Below, piece by piece: positions 20,705-46,814 of a DNA stretch of 64,000 nucleotides (within the stretch, counting starts at the first letter, position 1; the number at the start of each line of letters is the position of its first letter). The notes beneath the pieces are model-generated. The model saw only the letters and a program-made list of their open reading frames with translations. It made no database searches and was not told the origin of the DNA. A program made the position numbers and the translations under genes. This DNA comes from Thermoanaerobaculia bacterium (GTDB lineage: Bacteria > Acidobacteriota > Thermoanaerobaculia > Multivoradales > JAGPDF01), in assembly GCA_046331385.1 (NCBI GenBank), contig JAXLQW010000001.1, forward strand, positions 384,188 to 448,187, given 5' to 3'.

Positions 20705-21538
20705 ATGGGCTGGCGGAGAACGACACGGATCTACGGGCGGCTGACGCGCGCCCTGGGGTACTCCTTCGTCGCCTATGGCGGCGCCCTGCTCAGCGGCTGG
20801 TTGCTGGCGCCCTGGCCGCGCGCGAGCGCGCGCTGGCAGATGCGCAGCTTCCAGTTCTGGTCGCGCGCTCTGGTGCGAGTCTTCGGCGTCCGCCTGACGG
20901 TCGTCGGCGAGCCGCCGCGCCCACCCTTCTTCCTGGTCGCGAACCACCTCTCGTACGTCGACATCGTGGTGCTCGGCACGCAGTTGCCGTGCGTTTTTGT
21001 CGCCAAGGCGGAGATCGACCGCTGGCCGGTCTTCGGCGCCATCTGTCGGGTGGTCAACACGATCTTCATCGACCGCAAGTTGAAGCGCGACGTGCCGCGC
21101 GCCATCGCGCTCATCCGCGAGGCGCTCGCGGTCGGCAAGGGGATCGTGGTCTTCGCCGAGAGCACTTCGAGCGCCGGCGCCGAGGTCATGCCGTTCCGCT
21201 CGCCGCTGCTCGACCTGCCGGTCAAGATGGGTCTGCCGGTGCACTACGCGGTGCTCGGCTACCGCACGCCGGAGTTCGCGCCGCCGGCCTTCTCGACCGT
21301 CTGCTGGTGGGGCAACGCGCCATTCGCGCCGCACGTCAAGGAATTCCTCGCCCTGCCGAGGGTCGAGGCCCGCCTGGTCTTCGGTGACCAGCCGGTGGCG
21401 ATCGCCGACCGCAAGCAGCTCGCCGAGCGACTGCGCAGCGAAGTCGCGGCGCGCTTCGAGCCGACGGTCGGCGCCGAGGAGCTCGCCAAGTACCGCCCGC
21501 CTTGGCGCGAAGACATCGACGAATTCGCCGGCGAGTGA
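20705..21538 (+). CDS. Lysophospholipid acyltransferase (PlsC/OlsA-like)
   Basis: NHLSYVD (HxxxxD), FVAKAEI, FIDR, FAESTSS. Confidence 0.88.
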   Translation: MGWRRTTRIYGRLTRALGYSFVAYGGALLSGWLLAPWPRASARWQMRSFQFWSRALVRVFGVRLTVVGEPPRPPFFLVANHLSYVDIVVLGTQLPCVFVAKAEIDRWPVFGAICRVVNTIFIDRKLKRDVPRAIALIREALAVGKGIVVFAESTSSAGAEVMPFRSPLLDLPVKMGLPVHYAVLGYRTPEFAPPAFSTVCWWGNAPFAPHVKEFLALPRVEARLVFGDQPVAIADRKQLAERLRSEVAARFEPTVGAEELAKYRPPWREDIDEFAGE

Positions 21539-21585
21539 CCCCCCGCCCGGCCCCGCGGCAGCCGGCGGCAGCTCGACCTTCCAAC

Positions 21586-22110
21586 AAGAAAGGCTCGGTT
21601 AGAGACCCTACGGTTCCATCCTCGCGAACCCTGGGCCGGCTCGATCCCAGCCGACACCAGCTCTCGCCTGGGAGTGTGGGCTCACCGCGCGCCCTCGTGA
21701 ACTGGCGGGTGGCTCGGCTGGGCGAGGCTGGAAGTGCGGGTTTCCTTTTTCCCCAGGGTGAGCTTTTCTTCGCAGGTTGCTGGCAGCTCGAGCTCAGCGG
21801 ACACCAGCTCTCGCCTGGGAGTGTGGGCTCACCCCGCGCCCTCGTGAACTGGCGGGCGGCTCGGCTGGGCGAGGATGGAAGTGCGGGCGTCTTTTTTCCC
21901 TAGGTGAGCTTTTCTTCGCAGGTTGCTGGCAGCTCGGCCTCAGCGGACACCAGCTCTCGCCTAGGAGTGTGGGCCTCTCTCGCGCCCTCGTGAACTGGCG
22001 GGCGGCTCGGCTGGGCGAAGCTGGAAGTGTGGGCCTCCTTTTCCCTAACCAGATCCTTTTCTTCTTTTTCTTGCTGTGTTTTCTTCTTTTCTTCTATCTC
22101 TACTGTTTCG
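21586..22110. repeat. Modular ~146-147 bp tandem repeat array, locus 1 (3 units), ending in a pyrimidine tract
   Basis: GACACCAGCTCTCGCC at 21653, 21800, 21946; GCCCTCGTGAACT at 21691, 21838, 21984; GGTGAGCTTTTCTTCGCAGG at 21757, 21903. Confidence 0.9.
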
Positions 22111-43055: not shown

Positions 43056-44558
43056 GTGACCTTGCCCGGGCCCTCGATTCCCGCCGACCGGCTCACCGTG
43101 CGCCGCGACCTCGCGCCGGCGGCGGGGGAGTGCGTCCTCTACTGGATGACCTCGGCGCGGCGGCTGGAGTGGAACTACGCTCTCGATCGGGCGCTCGACT
43201 GGGCGCGAGCGCTCGACCGACCGCTCGTGGTGCTCGAGGCGCTGCGCTGCGACTACCCCTGGGCGAGCGCCCGCCTGCACCGCTTCGTCCTCGACGGCAT
43301 GGCGGAGAACGCCGCGCGGGCGGCGGCGAGCGGCATCGCCTACCACCCTTACGTCGAGCCCGCGCGCGGCGCCGGAGGCGGGCTGCTGGCGGCGCTGGCG
43401 GAGCGCGCCGCGGTGGTCGTCGGCGACGACTTCCCGGCCTTCTTCCTGCCGCGCATGACGGCGCGCGCCGCGGCGATCGTCCCCTGCCGCTTCGAGACCG
43501 TCGACGCGAACGGGCTGCTGCCGCTCGCCTCCTCGACCGCCGCGTACCCGACGGCCTACGCGTTCCGCCGCTTCCTGCAGGCAAACCTCAAGCGCCATCT
43601 GGCGGCGCTTCCCGAGCCGGCGCCGCTCGCGGCGGCGGACCTGCCGCGCGGCGGACGGGTCCCGGAGGCGATCCAGCGTCGCTGGCCCGCCGCGAGCCCG
43701 TCCCTGCTCGCGGGCGACGCCGCGGAGCTCGCGGCCTTGCCGATCGATCGCTCGGTCGCGCCGGTCGCCGACCGCCGCGGCGGCGCGGTCGCGGCGCGGG
43801 AGCGGCTCGAGAGCTTCGTCTCCGCCGGCCTCGCGCGCTACGCCGAGGAGCGCAATCACCCGGACGCCGACGCCGGCAGCGGGCTCTCGCCGTACCTGCA
43901 TTTCGGGCACCTGTCGACGCACGCAGTGCTGGCGCGGCTGGCGCGCGAGTTCCACTGGTCGGTCGAGGATCTGCCCGAGCGCGGCGTCGGCGCGCGCCAG
44001 GGCTGGTGGCGGATGCCGCCCGCGGCCGAGTCCTTCCTCGACGAGCTGGTGACCTGGCGCGAGCTCGGGTACCACTTCTGCGCCCGGCGGCCGGACGATC
44101 ACGACGCCTACGAGTCGCTCCCGGCCTGGGCGCGGGCGACGCTCGAGAAGCACGCCGGCGATCCTCGTCGCTCTACCTATGATCTCGCCGAGCTCGAGGG
44201 CGCCGCCACGCACGATCCGCTTTGGAACGCGGCGCAGCGCGAGCTCGTCACCACCGGCCGGCTGCACTCCTATCTGCGGATGCTCTGGGGCAAGAAGATC
44301 CTCGAGTGGTCGAGCGATCCGCGCTCGGCGCTGGCGACCATGTTCCACCTCAACGACAAGTACGCCCTCGACGGCCGGGACCCCAACTCGACGAGCGGCA
44401 TCCTCTGGTGCCTCGGTCGGTTCGACCGTCCGTGGGCGCCGGAACGGGCGATCTTCGGCGTGGTGCGTTACTTGTCGAGCGACAACACGGCGCGCAAGCT
44501 GAGGCTGAAGGAGTACCTGAAGAGGCACGCCCCAGGCGCCGAAGGCGCAACCTCCTAG
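43056..44558 (+). CDS. phr: Deoxyribodipyrimidine photolyase, class II-type
   Basis: YWMTSARR...NYAL, SGLSPYLHFG, ELVTWREL, YLRMLWGKKILEW, NDKYALDGRDPNS. Confidence 0.9.
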   Translation: MTLPGPSIPADRLTVRRDLAPAAGECVLYWMTSARRLEWNYALDRALDWARALDRPLVVLEALRCDYPWASARLHRFVLDGMAENAARAAASGIAYHPYVEPARGAGGGLLAALAERAAVVVGDDFPAFFLPRMTARAAAIVPCRFETVDANGLLPLASSTAAYPTAYAFRRFLQANLKRHLAALPEPAPLAAADLPRGGRVPEAIQRRWPAASPSLLAGDAAELAALPIDRSVAPVADRRGGAVAARERLESFVSAGLARYAEERNHPDADAGSGLSPYLHFGHLSTHAVLARLAREFHWSVEDLPERGVGARQGWWRMPPAAESFLDELVTWRELGYHFCARRPDDHDAYESLPAWARATLEKHAGDPRRSTYDLAELEGAATHDPLWNAAQRELVTTGRLHSYLRMLWGKKILEWSSDPRSALATMFHLNDKYALDGRDPNSTSGILWCLGRFDRPWAPERAIFGVVRYLSSDNTARKLRLKEYLKRHAPGAEGATS

Positions 44559-44781
44559 GTGGGTGGGCTTGCGCTCCGCCCTCGTGAACTGGCTGGCTCG
44601 ACGGCGCGGGGCAAGAACGGCAAGCGTCCTTCTCCCCCAGGTGATCTTTTCTTCGCAGGATGGCGAAGGATCGGACTCCTCGGACACCAGCTCTCGCCTA
44701 GGAGTGCGGGCTGGCGCACCGCCCTCGTGAACTCGTGGCTGGCTCGACGGCGCGAGGCAAGAACGGCAAGCGTCCTTTTCC

Positions 44782-45723
44782 CTAGGTGTTAGTGCTCAAG
44801 AGGTTGTTGACTCGCGAGCAGGGTGGTTTTCTGCCGAGAGCGGTGTGAGGTCGGTGGAAATTGTAGCGGTGGAGGAAGGCTGGGAGTGCTTCTCGGCGTT
44901 GGCGAGAGGAGCAGTAGGGTCGAGCGTAGGCCCATTCCCGGAGGGCGGTCTGGATGAGCCTCTCGGCTTTGCCGTTGGTTCTTGGGGTGTAGGGCCGGGT
45001 GCGTAGGTGGCGGAGTTTGTAGCGCGTGCAGGCGCGTTGCATCTTCTTCGAGCGATAGCCGGTACCGTTGTCGGTGAGGATGCGCTGAGCCTCGATGCCG
45101 TGCTGTCGATACCAAGCGACCGCCCGGCGCAGGAAGCCCGCCACAGTGGCTCCCGTTTCGTCGGGCAAGACTTCCATGTAGGACAAACGACTGAAGTCGT
45201 CGATGGCGACATGAGCGTACTCCCAGCCGGCGCCGCGTTTTCGCCGACTCTGGTCGCCGTGGATGCGATGACCGATTCCGTCGATCCGGCCGAGCTTCTT
45301 GATGTCGAGGTGAATCAGCTCGCCGGGAGCCTGGCGCTCGTAGCGAATCACCGGGGGCTTCGGCTCGAGATCCCGAGCTCGCGACAGTTTGTGCCGCCGC
45401 AGGATTCGCCCCAAGGTGGAGCGTGGAATGCCGGTGAGCTCGGCCAGGGCTTGGGCGTTCAGCCGGTGTTGCCGGCGCAGGTGGATGGCCAGCTCCTCCC
45501 GGCTCAGGGAAAGCTTCCTAGGCGAGCGATGAGGCCGCGACGAGCGATCGAGCAACCCGCCCTCTCCTTCGTCGAGGAAGCGGCCAATCCACTTTCGCGC
45601 GGTCTGGCGGCTGACCCCCGCCGCGCGCGAAGCCTGGCCCATGGGCCAGGCTTCCTGCAAAACACGACGACAAAGCAAGGCTCGACTTTCCGGGCAAGTC
45701 TTTGCTCTTCTATGGATGTTCAT
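44782..45723 (-). CDS. IS481-family DDE transposase
   Basis: MNIHRRAKT, PGELIHLDIKKLG, AIDDFSR, LTDNG, NGKAER; GGAGG RBS; stop TAG lies in the target duplication. Confidence 0.95.
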   Translation of the reverse strand: MNIHRRAKTCPESRALLCRRVLQEAWPMGQASRAAGVSRQTARKWIGRFLDEGEGGLLDRSSRPHRSPRKLSLSREELAIHLRRQHRLNAQALAELTGIPRSTLGRILRRHKLSRARDLEPKPPVIRYERQAPGELIHLDIKKLGRIDGIGHRIHGDQSRRKRGAGWEYAHVAIDDFSRLSYMEVLPDETGATVAGFLRRAVAWYRQHGIEAQRILTDNGTGYRSKKMQRACTRYKLRHLRTRPYTPRTNGKAERLIQTALREWAYARPYCSSRQRREALPAFLHRYNFHRPHTALGRKPPCSRVNNLLSTNT

Positions 45724-45808
45724 CCGGGCTGCCTCCGTGGTTTGCCAGCTCTTCGACAAAGCCAGCCTGCCACAGCAGTCCGGGTGAACAACCTATTGAG
45801 CAGTCACA
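44787..45808 (-). mobile_element. IS481-family insertion sequence (1022 bp) with 6-bp CCTAGG target duplication
   Basis: Imperfect 25-bp TIRs TGTTAGTGCTCAAGAGGTTGTTGAC / TGTGACTGCTCAATAGGTTGTTCAC (21 of 25 identical); CCTAGG at 44781-44786 and 45809-45814; visibly lower GC than flanks. Confidence 0.95.
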
Positions 45809-46074
45809 CCTAGGTGAGCTTTTCTTCGCAGGATGGCGGCACCTCGAACGACGCCGACACCAGCTCTCGCCTAGGAGTGCGGGCTGGCGCACCGCCCTCG
45901 TGAACTGGCGACCGGTCGGCTTGGCGAGGCTGGAACTGCGAGGTGTCTTTTCTTCCCAGTCGAGCTTTTCCTCTCTGCGTGAACGCGCAATCGGCTCGGT
46001 CCCGCGAAGCTGGAGATTCCGGCGTCTTTTCCTTTTGACCGGGCCTTTGTTTCTTTCCTTCTTCTTCCTCTTGC

Positions 46075-46091
46075 TGAGAACCAGTTATCAT
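46075..46091 (+). promoter_or_regulatory. Candidate Fur/Zur-type operator overlapping a -10 element
   Basis: Imperfect palindrome TGAGAAC-CA-GTTATCA overlapping TATCAT (46086-46091), 6 nt before ATG 46098. Confidence 0.4.
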
Positions 46092-46097
46092 TAGAAC

Positions 46098-46814
46098 ATG
46101 GAGGCTGGGGAGGTGTCGGCGGGGGTGCTGGTCGAGTTGCGCGGCGTGTCGGTGGGGCACGGCGACGATGTCGCGCTTTCCGGCGTCGATCTCTCGGTCG
46201 CGGCCGGCGACCGCCTGGCGATCCTCGGTCCCAACGGCGGCGGCAAGAGCACCCTGGTGCGCGCCGTTCTCGGGTTGGTCCGGCCAGGCTCGGGGTCGGT
46301 GGTCTGGTCGCGGCCGCGGCGCGCTCTCCGGCTGGGCTACGTGCCGCAGTTCCCGGCCTTCGACCGCTCCTTTCCGATCCGGGTGCGCGACCTGATCGCC
46401 CACGGTCGCCTGCGCCACGGTTCCGGCGACCGGCGCGGCGGCGGTGGCGCCGAGGAGGCGGTGATCGCTCTCTGGCTCGAGCGGCTCGACCTCGGCGCGC
46501 TCGGCGACGCCTACCTGACGGAGCTCTCGGGGGGAGAGCTCAAGCGGGCGCTGATCGCTCGCGCGCTGGTGGGGGAGCCGGAGTTGTTGGTGCTCGACGA
46601 GGCGACCGCTTCGCTCGACGAATCCTCGCGGCGCGCGTTCTGGCGTCTGCTCGGAGAGCTGCCGGCGTCGACCGCCATCCTGCTCGCCACCCACGATCTC
46701 GCGCCCGGAACCTTCGCGCCCACCCGTGCCCTGCTCGTCGACCGCACGGTGGCGGACCTGCCGCTCGACGGGCTCCACACCCATCCCCTGCTCTGCGGGC
46801 ACGGACATGACTGA
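46098..46814 (+). CDS. Metal (Zn/Mn) ABC transporter ATP-binding protein (ZnuC-like)
   Basis: GPNGGGKST, GYVPQ, LSGGE, LVLDEAT, THDL, C-terminal CGHGHD. Confidence 0.9.
   Translation: MEAGEVSAGVLVELRGVSVGHGDDVALSGVDLSVAAGDRLAILGPNGGGKSTLVRAVLGLVRPGSGSVVWSRPRRALRLGYVPQFPAFDRSFPIRVRDLIAHGRLRHGSGDRRGGGGAEEAVIALWLERLDLGALGDAYLTELSGGELKRALIARALVGEPELLVLDEATASLDESSRRAFWRLLGELPASTAILLATHDLAPGTFAPTRALLVDRTVADLPLDGLHTHPLLCGHGHD

Follow-up and report, generated by a model that had tools for sequence, protein, structure and literature searches.

The spacer between the photolyase gene (phr) and the znuC-like gene of a Thermoanaerobaculia bacterium (contig JAXLQW010000001.1, positions 384,188–448,187, a stretch of 64,000 nucleotides [nt] referred to here as the window) is filled by a tandem repeat array interrupted by an insertion sequence (IS). 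We read this region as one array of a narrowly distributed, non-coding family of ~146-bp intergenic tandem repeats, a family that behaves like BOX elements, mycobacterial interspersed repetitive units (MIRUs) and bacterial interspersed mosaic elements (BIMEs) and is devoid of guide or spacer information; we would put the probability of this reading at about 65%. The arrays of this family sit at fixed sites and are vertically inherited. They change by duplication, deletion and recombination of units, and sequence is exchanged both within and between arrays, which amounts to concerted evolution. An element of the IS481 family entered later, in this lineage only, at a CTAG target that the repeat provided.

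The exact 13-nt core GCCCTCGTGAACT occurs six times in the window (at 21691, 21838, 21984, 44578, 44721 and 45894), with three copies at each of two loci, all of them on the + strand. Repeat finding and profile searching delimit units of 143–147 nt, and five to six units were aligned. At locus 2, the phr-znuC spacer, the cores are spaced 143 nt apart and then, once 1028 nt (the IS plus one target duplication) are subtracted, 145 nt; a period of 143–145 after removal of the IS is what had been read from the sequence in the original prediction. That reading also had the array starting at a CCTAGG that gives the photolyase its stop codon, and the TAG at 44556–44558 does lie within the CCTAGG at 44554–44559. 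It was right as well on the block structure, on the shared orientation of the two loci, and on the closing tracts, which at both loci are T/C-rich, G-poor and contain TCTTGCTG (at 22069 and 46069). These tails are 46%–56% T and 9%–12% G, compared with 14.5% T and 36% G for the window, and there are no other such tracts in the window. Three modules had been counted at locus 2, and three exact cores are indeed present, but the array consists of a partial unit 1, full units 2 and 3, an internally deleted unit 4 and a tail. The features of locus 2 and its flanks are as follows (E-values are from nhmmer).

43056–44558, + strand: deoxyribodipyrimidine photolyase gene (phr), an open reading frame (ORF) with a Pfam DNA_photolyase match and homologues named photolyase.
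44554–44633, + strand: unit 1, second half only (end of block A, core, variable part, T-run), profile positions 64–145, E = 1.6e-14.
44634–44779, + strand: unit 2, full, 146 nt, E = 9.6e-40.
44781–44786, no strand: left target-site duplication CCTAGG, the junction motif that opens unit 3; the flanks rejoined give TTTTCCCTAGGTGAGCTTTTCTTCGCAGG.
44787–45808, − strand: IS481-family insertion sequence, 1022 bp, with Pfam LZ_Tnp_IS481 and rve matches.
45809–45814, no strand: right target-site duplication CCTAGG.
44780–44786 plus 45815–45953, + strand: unit 3, E = 2.8e-40.
45954–46033, + strand: unit 4, with an internal deletion joining block B to GTGAAC, profile positions 93–145, E = 6.9e-05.
46034–46076, + strand: tail, T/C-rich and G-poor, ending in TCTTGCTG, delimited by composition and alignment.
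46077–46097, + strand: operator/promoter-like box AGAACCAGTTATCATTAGAAC, adjoining the znuC start codon and also present upstream of znuA in a distant relative (contig L011).
46098–46814, + strand: znuC-like ABC ATPase gene, from Pfam ABC_tran and synteny.

Locus 1, which lies between plsC and a hydrolase-DedA gene, is laid out as follows.

21586–22110, + strand: whole array, orthologous to L017:4810-5544 of a sister species.
21586–21605, + strand: block-A-like remnant in the leader.
21606–21750, + strand: unit 1, first part degenerate.
21751–21897, + strand: unit 2.
21898–22042, + strand: unit 3.
22043 to ~22110, + strand: tail.

Each unit is built in the order junction and pyrimidine block CCCTAGGTGAGCTTTTCTTCGCAGG, ~23 variable nt, block A GACACCAGCTCTCGCCTAGGAGTGYGGGC, ~10 variable nt, core, ~11 variable nt and TCCTTTT, giving three short fast-changing stretches and a T-rich end. 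The core (CGCCCTCGTGAACTGGCG...GGCTCGGCTGGGCGAGGCTGG, ~40 nt) is strongly conserved, and across all units of two species 14–18 nt of it are invariant. An imperfect inverted repeat of ~12 bp (CC(C)TAGGTGAGC ... GCTCTCGCCTAGG) is formed by junction and block A, with a complementarity of −15.6 versus −11.8 ± 1.0 kcal/mol for shuffled sequence, a value reached by none of 300 composition-matched shuffles. The array tails are composed of copies of the unit's own TTTTCTTC motif. The ~45-nt segments originally described as differing strongly between the loci do so in part, but they include a conserved GGCTCG-N6-CGAGGC and can be aligned across loci; moreover, unit 3 of locus 2 has a variable part of the locus-1 type, and hence the arrays are mosaic. 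The two halves of a unit are also alike (GGAGTGTGGGC versus GGAAGTGCGGGC and GGCAGCTCGAGCTCAGCG versus GGCGGCTCGGCTGGGCG, for instance in 21751–21897 or any full unit), and a ~73-bp ancestor may have dimerized long ago to give the 146-bp unit.

A photolyase search found one close relative, at 90% amino-acid identity (contig L010), which is syntenic with the window over kup, phr, znuC, znuB and fur. Nucleotide identity between the two species is ~93% over the flanking genes (91% for phr, 93% for znuC and 95% for kup), and 86%–89% at third codon positions. This sister species carries an array in the same phr-znuC spacer (L010:10117-10578), in which a first unit whose start is degenerate is followed by one full unit, the internally deleted unit known from the window and a tail; this is one unit fewer than in the window. 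By alignment, unit 1 of window locus 2 is the orthologue of the sister species' first unit. Unit 3 is orthologous to its unit 2 (against L010:10272-10425, 127 positions match, 14 mismatch and 16 are gaps). Unit 4 has an identical nhmmer hit in L010 and is 80% identical to unit 4 there; its internal deletion predates the species split. The alignment of the tails has 12 slippage-type gap positions.

Locus 1 was reached in the sister species via a member of the plsC-like protein cluster. Two samples of one project (L017 and L018) carry its array at the same site, again between plsC and the hydrolase-DedA gene, with the same leader, degenerate first unit and tail as in the window. The number of units is three in the window, four in L017 (L017:4810-5544) and two in L018 (L018:1483-1925, with flanks identical to those of L017). 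The two-unit version equals what are units 1 and 4 in the four-unit one, and an assembly collapse could have produced it. For L017, a private base in unit 3 shows that the array really has no fewer than four units. In a third related population (study P3, ~89% identity), DNA contigs enter both arrays from the flanking genes, and the IS is absent.

Orthologous spacers in relatives had been proposed as the place to look for empty sites. Those of the sister species are occupied at both loci, and the repeat is missing from the more distant relative L011 (photolyase identity 67%), where the order is phr-88 nt-znuA-znuC-znuB-fur, no repeat is present in 21 kb, and znuA stands at the locus 2 site (L011:11507-12473 versus window 44559–46097). 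It follows that the origin of the array is later than that split and that the spacer holding it had lost znuA. The gene for the periplasmic binding protein, znuA, is missing between phr and znuC in both the window and the sister species. The box AGAACCAGTTATCATTAGAAC is ancestral and not part of the repeat, given its position upstream of znuA in L011. This box abuts the znuC ATG (46077–46100), with a TATCAT 6 nt ahead of it, and the arrangement suggests that the znuC start is leaderless and under Zur/Fur control.

These comparisons bear directly on the origin first proposed for the arrays, that of a defined three-unit mobile cassette and not of local duplication. The equal count of three GCCCTCGTGAACT cores and the similar tail in each window array do fit a cassette. 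Yet the unit number at locus 1 is three versus four (or two), that at locus 2 differs between species and includes a fourth, deleted unit, and the arrays are orthologous, not new insertions; nor was local duplication rightly dismissed, as the second half of locus 2 unit 2 is a recent duplicate of unit 1 (44590–44636 versus 44736–44782, 96% identity in the variable part; repeat family D4), alongside deletion and mosaic recombination. The companion idea, a scaffold with guide-like variable segments, fares no better. The variable parts align with one another, are shuffled between units and do not covary (p=0.71), and elsewhere in the window none of them finds, on either strand, a match of more than 14 nt. 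The features expected of a clustered regularly interspaced short palindromic repeat (CRISPR) or other guide array, namely unrelated spacers with foreign or genomic targets and linked effector genes, are lacking in the window, where the neighbors of the arrays are phr, znuC, plsC and the hydrolase-DedA fusion. We regard cassette and guide scaffold alike as very improbable. What the arrays do display is the behavior of a MIRU-like variable number tandem repeat (VNTR), that is, head-to-tail units at a fixed locus in numbers that differ between close relatives.

Several kinds of event have shaped these arrays. At window locus 2, a deletion of ~88 nt removed the final three codons of the photolyase together with the leader and one half of unit 1, fusing photolyase codon 499 to the repeat (window 44540–44560 versus L010:10095-10200). 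Because this deletion joined the end of the photolyase to unit 1, the repeat now supplies the stop codon; the window photolyase is 2 amino acids shorter than that of the sister species, whose stop lies 2 codons later. In L017, one unit (R1u3) is a recombinant, with its first half from u2/u4 and its second half from u1. At five positions, every internal unit in the array of one species carries a substitution that the array of the other species lacks. Block A is identical at 110/116 positions between window loci 1 and 2, but at only 20/29 between a window unit and its orthologue in the sister species. Taken together, the duplication, the deletions, the recombinant unit, the fixed differences and the block A swap point to unequal recombination and gene conversion.

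Divergence is far from uniform along the unit. Between orthologous units of the two species, the first part of the core is identical at 47/48 positions (98%) and the second part at 67/71 (94%), or 114/119 (96%) for CCCTCGTGAACTGGCG plus GGCGGCTCGGCTGGGCGAGGCTGG combined, compared with 63/72 (88%) for the junction block, 73/87 (84%) for block A and 67%–75% for the three variable parts. The low value for the variable parts arises because the first-unit pair has a swapped second half. Faster-than-neutral change of these parts was considered and rejected, as it vanishes without the recombinant first-unit pair (34/42 = 81%, close to neutral). The near-invariance of the blocks had been attributed to selection on a scaffold, and for the core, at 96% versus 86%–89% for third codon positions, that may stand; for block A, which differs from its orthologues, identity between the window loci reflects in part sequence exchange and not selection only. 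Free variation of unit number, uniform divergence across blocks and variable parts, and static inheritance at the same sites had been named in advance as findings that would speak against a cassette or scaffold. The first and the third are largely borne out, and the second is not.

The element that interrupts locus 2 encodes a 313-amino-acid product matching Pfam LZ_Tnp_IS481 (PF13011, 2.7e-22) and rve (integrase core, 1.6e-16). Its DDE transposase with a leucine-zipper N-terminus, its length of 1022 bp and its 6-bp CCTAGG duplication place it in the IS481 family. The ends are imperfect terminal inverted repeats (TGTTAGTGCTCAAGAGGTTGTT / TGTGACTGCTCAATAGGTTGTT), and the transposase ORF runs from 45723 to 44782, its stop codon being provided by the target CTAG. 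Removing the IS and one duplication restores a normal unit junction like those at locus 1. The IS481 family reportedly targets NCTAGN with a 6-bp duplication, and the CCTAGG duplicated here fits that rule. Contig depth (83 versus 11) indicates about 8 identical copies in the genome. In all of them CTAGG adjoins the left end, and the unitigs at the right end branch into one of depth 26 with 9 shared nt and one of depth 54 with 6 shared nt. All copies thus lie at NCTAGG and about a third have a continuation resembling the repeat junction, which suggests that roughly one-third of the copies reside in repeat-like flanks. With only that share, the repeat would be one supplier of CTAG and not an exclusive target. 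Insertion sequences tend to land in repetitive extragenic palindromic (REP)-type repeats (Tobes and Pareja 2006, PMC1525189), and the insertion in the window repeat parallels that tendency.

DNA nearly identical to the window is found in wastewater and farm metagenomes. In those runs the depth of contigs over the repeat blocks is 10–40 times the single-copy depth, rising to ~60 times in the related population, and the family is therefore multi-copy. Two core patterns scanned against public genome, metagenome and viral contigs gave 0 hits and then 5, 4 and 2, all of them single chance matches in coding DNA, though the metagenome scan missed a Joint Genome Institute (JGI) record that carries the repeat and its negative result is weak evidence. 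Among 5.8 billion proteins there was neither a homologue of the frame that is open through the units nor any gene-caller ORF placed over the repeat. With no true members from either the pattern scans or the ORF search, the family appears restricted to a small clade of Thermoanaerobaculia (Acidobacteriota) from wastewater and sludge.

A dispersed family of this kind, with about 10–60 block copies by depth, could also consist of non-autonomous mobile elements of the MITE (miniature inverted-repeat transposable element) or REPIN type, whose terminal inverted repeats are acted on by a transposase encoded elsewhere and whose arrays grew by repeated adjacent insertion. The inverted repeats formed by the junction and pyrimidine block and block A suit such elements, as does the commonest genomic variant, in which CCCTTAACCGAGCCTTTCTTTGC faces GCGAAAAGCTTCCGGTTAAG (seen in 30-nt contig ends only). 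Locus 1 is bounded by an imperfect 22-bp inverted repeat scoring 21 versus 13.7 ± 2.1, a score reached by 2 of 500 shuffles. This boundary repeat is, however, significant at window locus 1 only, and not at window locus 2 or in the sister species (L017, L010). No target duplications are seen flanking the arrays, both arrays have stayed in place since the species split, and the repeat is unlike the ends of the resident IS481 element, so that we consider a mobile origin of the units rather improbable. The block-A-like remnant in the locus 1 leader (21586–21605) repeats, imperfectly and in inverted orientation, the sequence with which the tail starts (22043–22068).

Transcripts of a related population are available from two wastewater metatranscriptomes of study P3. 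One RNA contig of 294 nt begins 47 nt inside the plsC-like gene and continues over the stop codon, the leader and unit 1 into unit 2, sharing single-nucleotide variants with that study's DNA contigs. Other copies of the repeat are represented by several RNA contigs of 160–784 nt that touch the core. In that run RNA depth over the phr and znuC flanks is zero, with no RNA contig for them, an argument against a uniform carry-over of DNA. A search of RNA runs with a single unit listed no further run. We infer read-through transcription from an expressed upstream gene.

In the reading we prefer, that of a non-coding tandem repeat family, transcription of the upstream gene would continue through the arrays, making them a part of that gene's 3′ untranslated region (UTR). 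If they act at all, they might do so in the manner of REP/BIME or BOX elements, as a structured, U-rich 3′ end that could slow exonucleases, help termination or insulate the next promoter, and they would presumably carry no guide or spacer information. A number of observations sit uneasily with this picture. On neither strand do single units fold more stably than dinucleotide shuffles (z = −0.5 to +1.1), which leaves a stabilizing-hairpin role without thermodynamic backing. Full units contain no canonical intrinsic terminator; the sole terminator-like hairpin of the scan is at 46009–46023, in the deleted unit 4. The RNA contigs are unstranded, assembled, of low depth and from a relative, and the copy number (roughly 10–60 block copies) is an estimate from contig depth only. 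Finally, the core (114/119) is more conserved between orthologues than third codon positions are, which could reflect a sequence-specific function or a divergence slowed by copying and gene conversion among many copies.

If the function lies in the core, each unit might be a + strand RNA module, namely a small RNA, a 3′-UTR riboregulator or a protein-binding platform, in which the Shine-Dalgarno (SD)-like UAGGAG of block A pairs with the upstream junction or with a downstream GGCGAGGCUGG. Besides the excess conservation of the core and its coverage by RNA contigs, this would account for T-runs that occur on the + strand only. RNAalifold (7 and 11 units) proposes a pairing of block A with GGCGAGGCTGG and a core hairpin GCCCUCGU/GCGGGCGG, which needs G-U pairs and is valid on the + strand only, and three units show one-sided U-G to U-A changes. 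The covariation term is nevertheless positive, with no convincing compensatory pairs or double compensatory changes, and the pairing of block A to the core is absent from the orthologous locus 2 units of the sister species. The folding energies give no help on either strand, a scan of full units for sigma-70-type promoters found none, and the RNA contig runs on from the upstream gene and defines no discrete unit. Rfam has no hit at its gathering score in the 64-kb window and no match at E≤5, and the arrays yield chance-level matches only (E>1). A unit-sized RNA module of this kind seems to us unlikely. The idea that the core's two hypervariable flanks pair with each other was abandoned as well, since cognate pairs are no better than non-cognate ones (permutation p=0.71).

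The arrays could instead work at the DNA level, as sites for a nucleoid-associated or topology protein for example, with the core as the site and the 146-bp spacing as phasing. The analogy is with BIMEs, which bind integration host factor (IHF), gyrase and Pol I, and the invariant core, the regular spacing and the AT-rich tails would agree with it. The core has no palindromic or direct-repeat architecture, though, and neither locus has a linked gene for a binding protein, and we hold this explanation for distinctly improbable. A coding role finds little in the units either. One frame is open through them (window 21502–21903 and 45702–46094, HQLSPGSVGSPRALVNWR...GELFFAG). The period of 143–147 nt is no multiple of three, and a period of 146 nt breaks the open frame. 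A small peptide was rejected as a candidate, the 13-codon ATG...TAG frame of the locus 2 units not being kept at locus 1.

The family is an undescribed one in the poorly studied Thermoanaerobaculia, and its mode of evolution can be documented. It reshapes its neighbors, providing a stop codon for the photolyase and a CTAG target for an IS481 element, and fills the place of the lost znuA directly upstream of the znu promoter. Short-read assemblies are likely to break at such arrays, which could also be used as strain markers. The family would gain in interest only if a sequence-specific RNA or DNA role emerged for the conserved core. At the far end of what the data allow, and as a long shot, the core and the SD-like UAGGAG block may be a functional + strand RNA module present in several copies in the 3′ UTRs of some of the clade's genes. 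It would then represent a class of element not seen before, either cis-acting or sequestering proteins or ribosomes, with a copy number per gene tuned by gain and loss of units and with the T/C-rich tail as a signal for Rho loading or termination.

Among known systems, Correia elements and Neisseria miniature insertion sequences (NEMIS), together with enterobacterial repetitive intergenic consensus (ERIC) sequences, are similarly intergenic repeats of 100–150 bp with inverted-repeat ends that are co-transcribed with flanking genes, but they are mostly single insertions with TA duplications, whereas the window has tandem arrays with a pyrimidine tail. The REP/BIME elements of enterobacteria and Pseudomonas are mosaic intergenic repeats behind genes, with an imperfect palindrome, transcription in the 3′ UTR and IS hits, all of which recall the window family. 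REPs, however, are 20–40-bp palindromes with GTAG or CGTC heads and alternating orientation, and are linked to REP-associated tyrosine transposases (RAYTs). The units described here are 143–147 bp long and their only palindromic part is the ~12-bp inverted repeat, its arms ~45 nt apart; all have the same direct orientation (+ strand), in the sister species as at the two window loci, and the unit alignment contains no GTAG or CGTC head. By unit size, orientation and head motif the window family is therefore not REP/BIME.

The BOX elements of Streptococcus pneumoniae have the structure boxA-boxB(n)-boxC, are intergenic, are transcribed with their neighbors and have no coding capacity. The window arrays appear to share with them distinct terminal modules, a variable number of tandem inner modules and partial complementarity of the ends. 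There is no sequence similarity, the units are 146 bp long versus ~45 bp for boxB, the host is a high-GC Acidobacteriota and the T/C-rich tail is unlike boxC. The MIRU-VNTR loci of mycobacteria are likewise direct tandem repeats in gene spacers, oriented with the upstream gene and touching its stop codon, and vary in unit number between close relatives. Their units, of tens to ~100 bp, are shorter than those described here and frequently contain small ORFs that couple translation, in contrast to the non-triplet period of the window family and its lack of a conserved ORF. The array hence belongs to a known class, that of mosaic intergenic tandem repeats, as a previously undescribed member of narrow distribution, closest in behavior to BOX, MIRU-VNTR and BIME.

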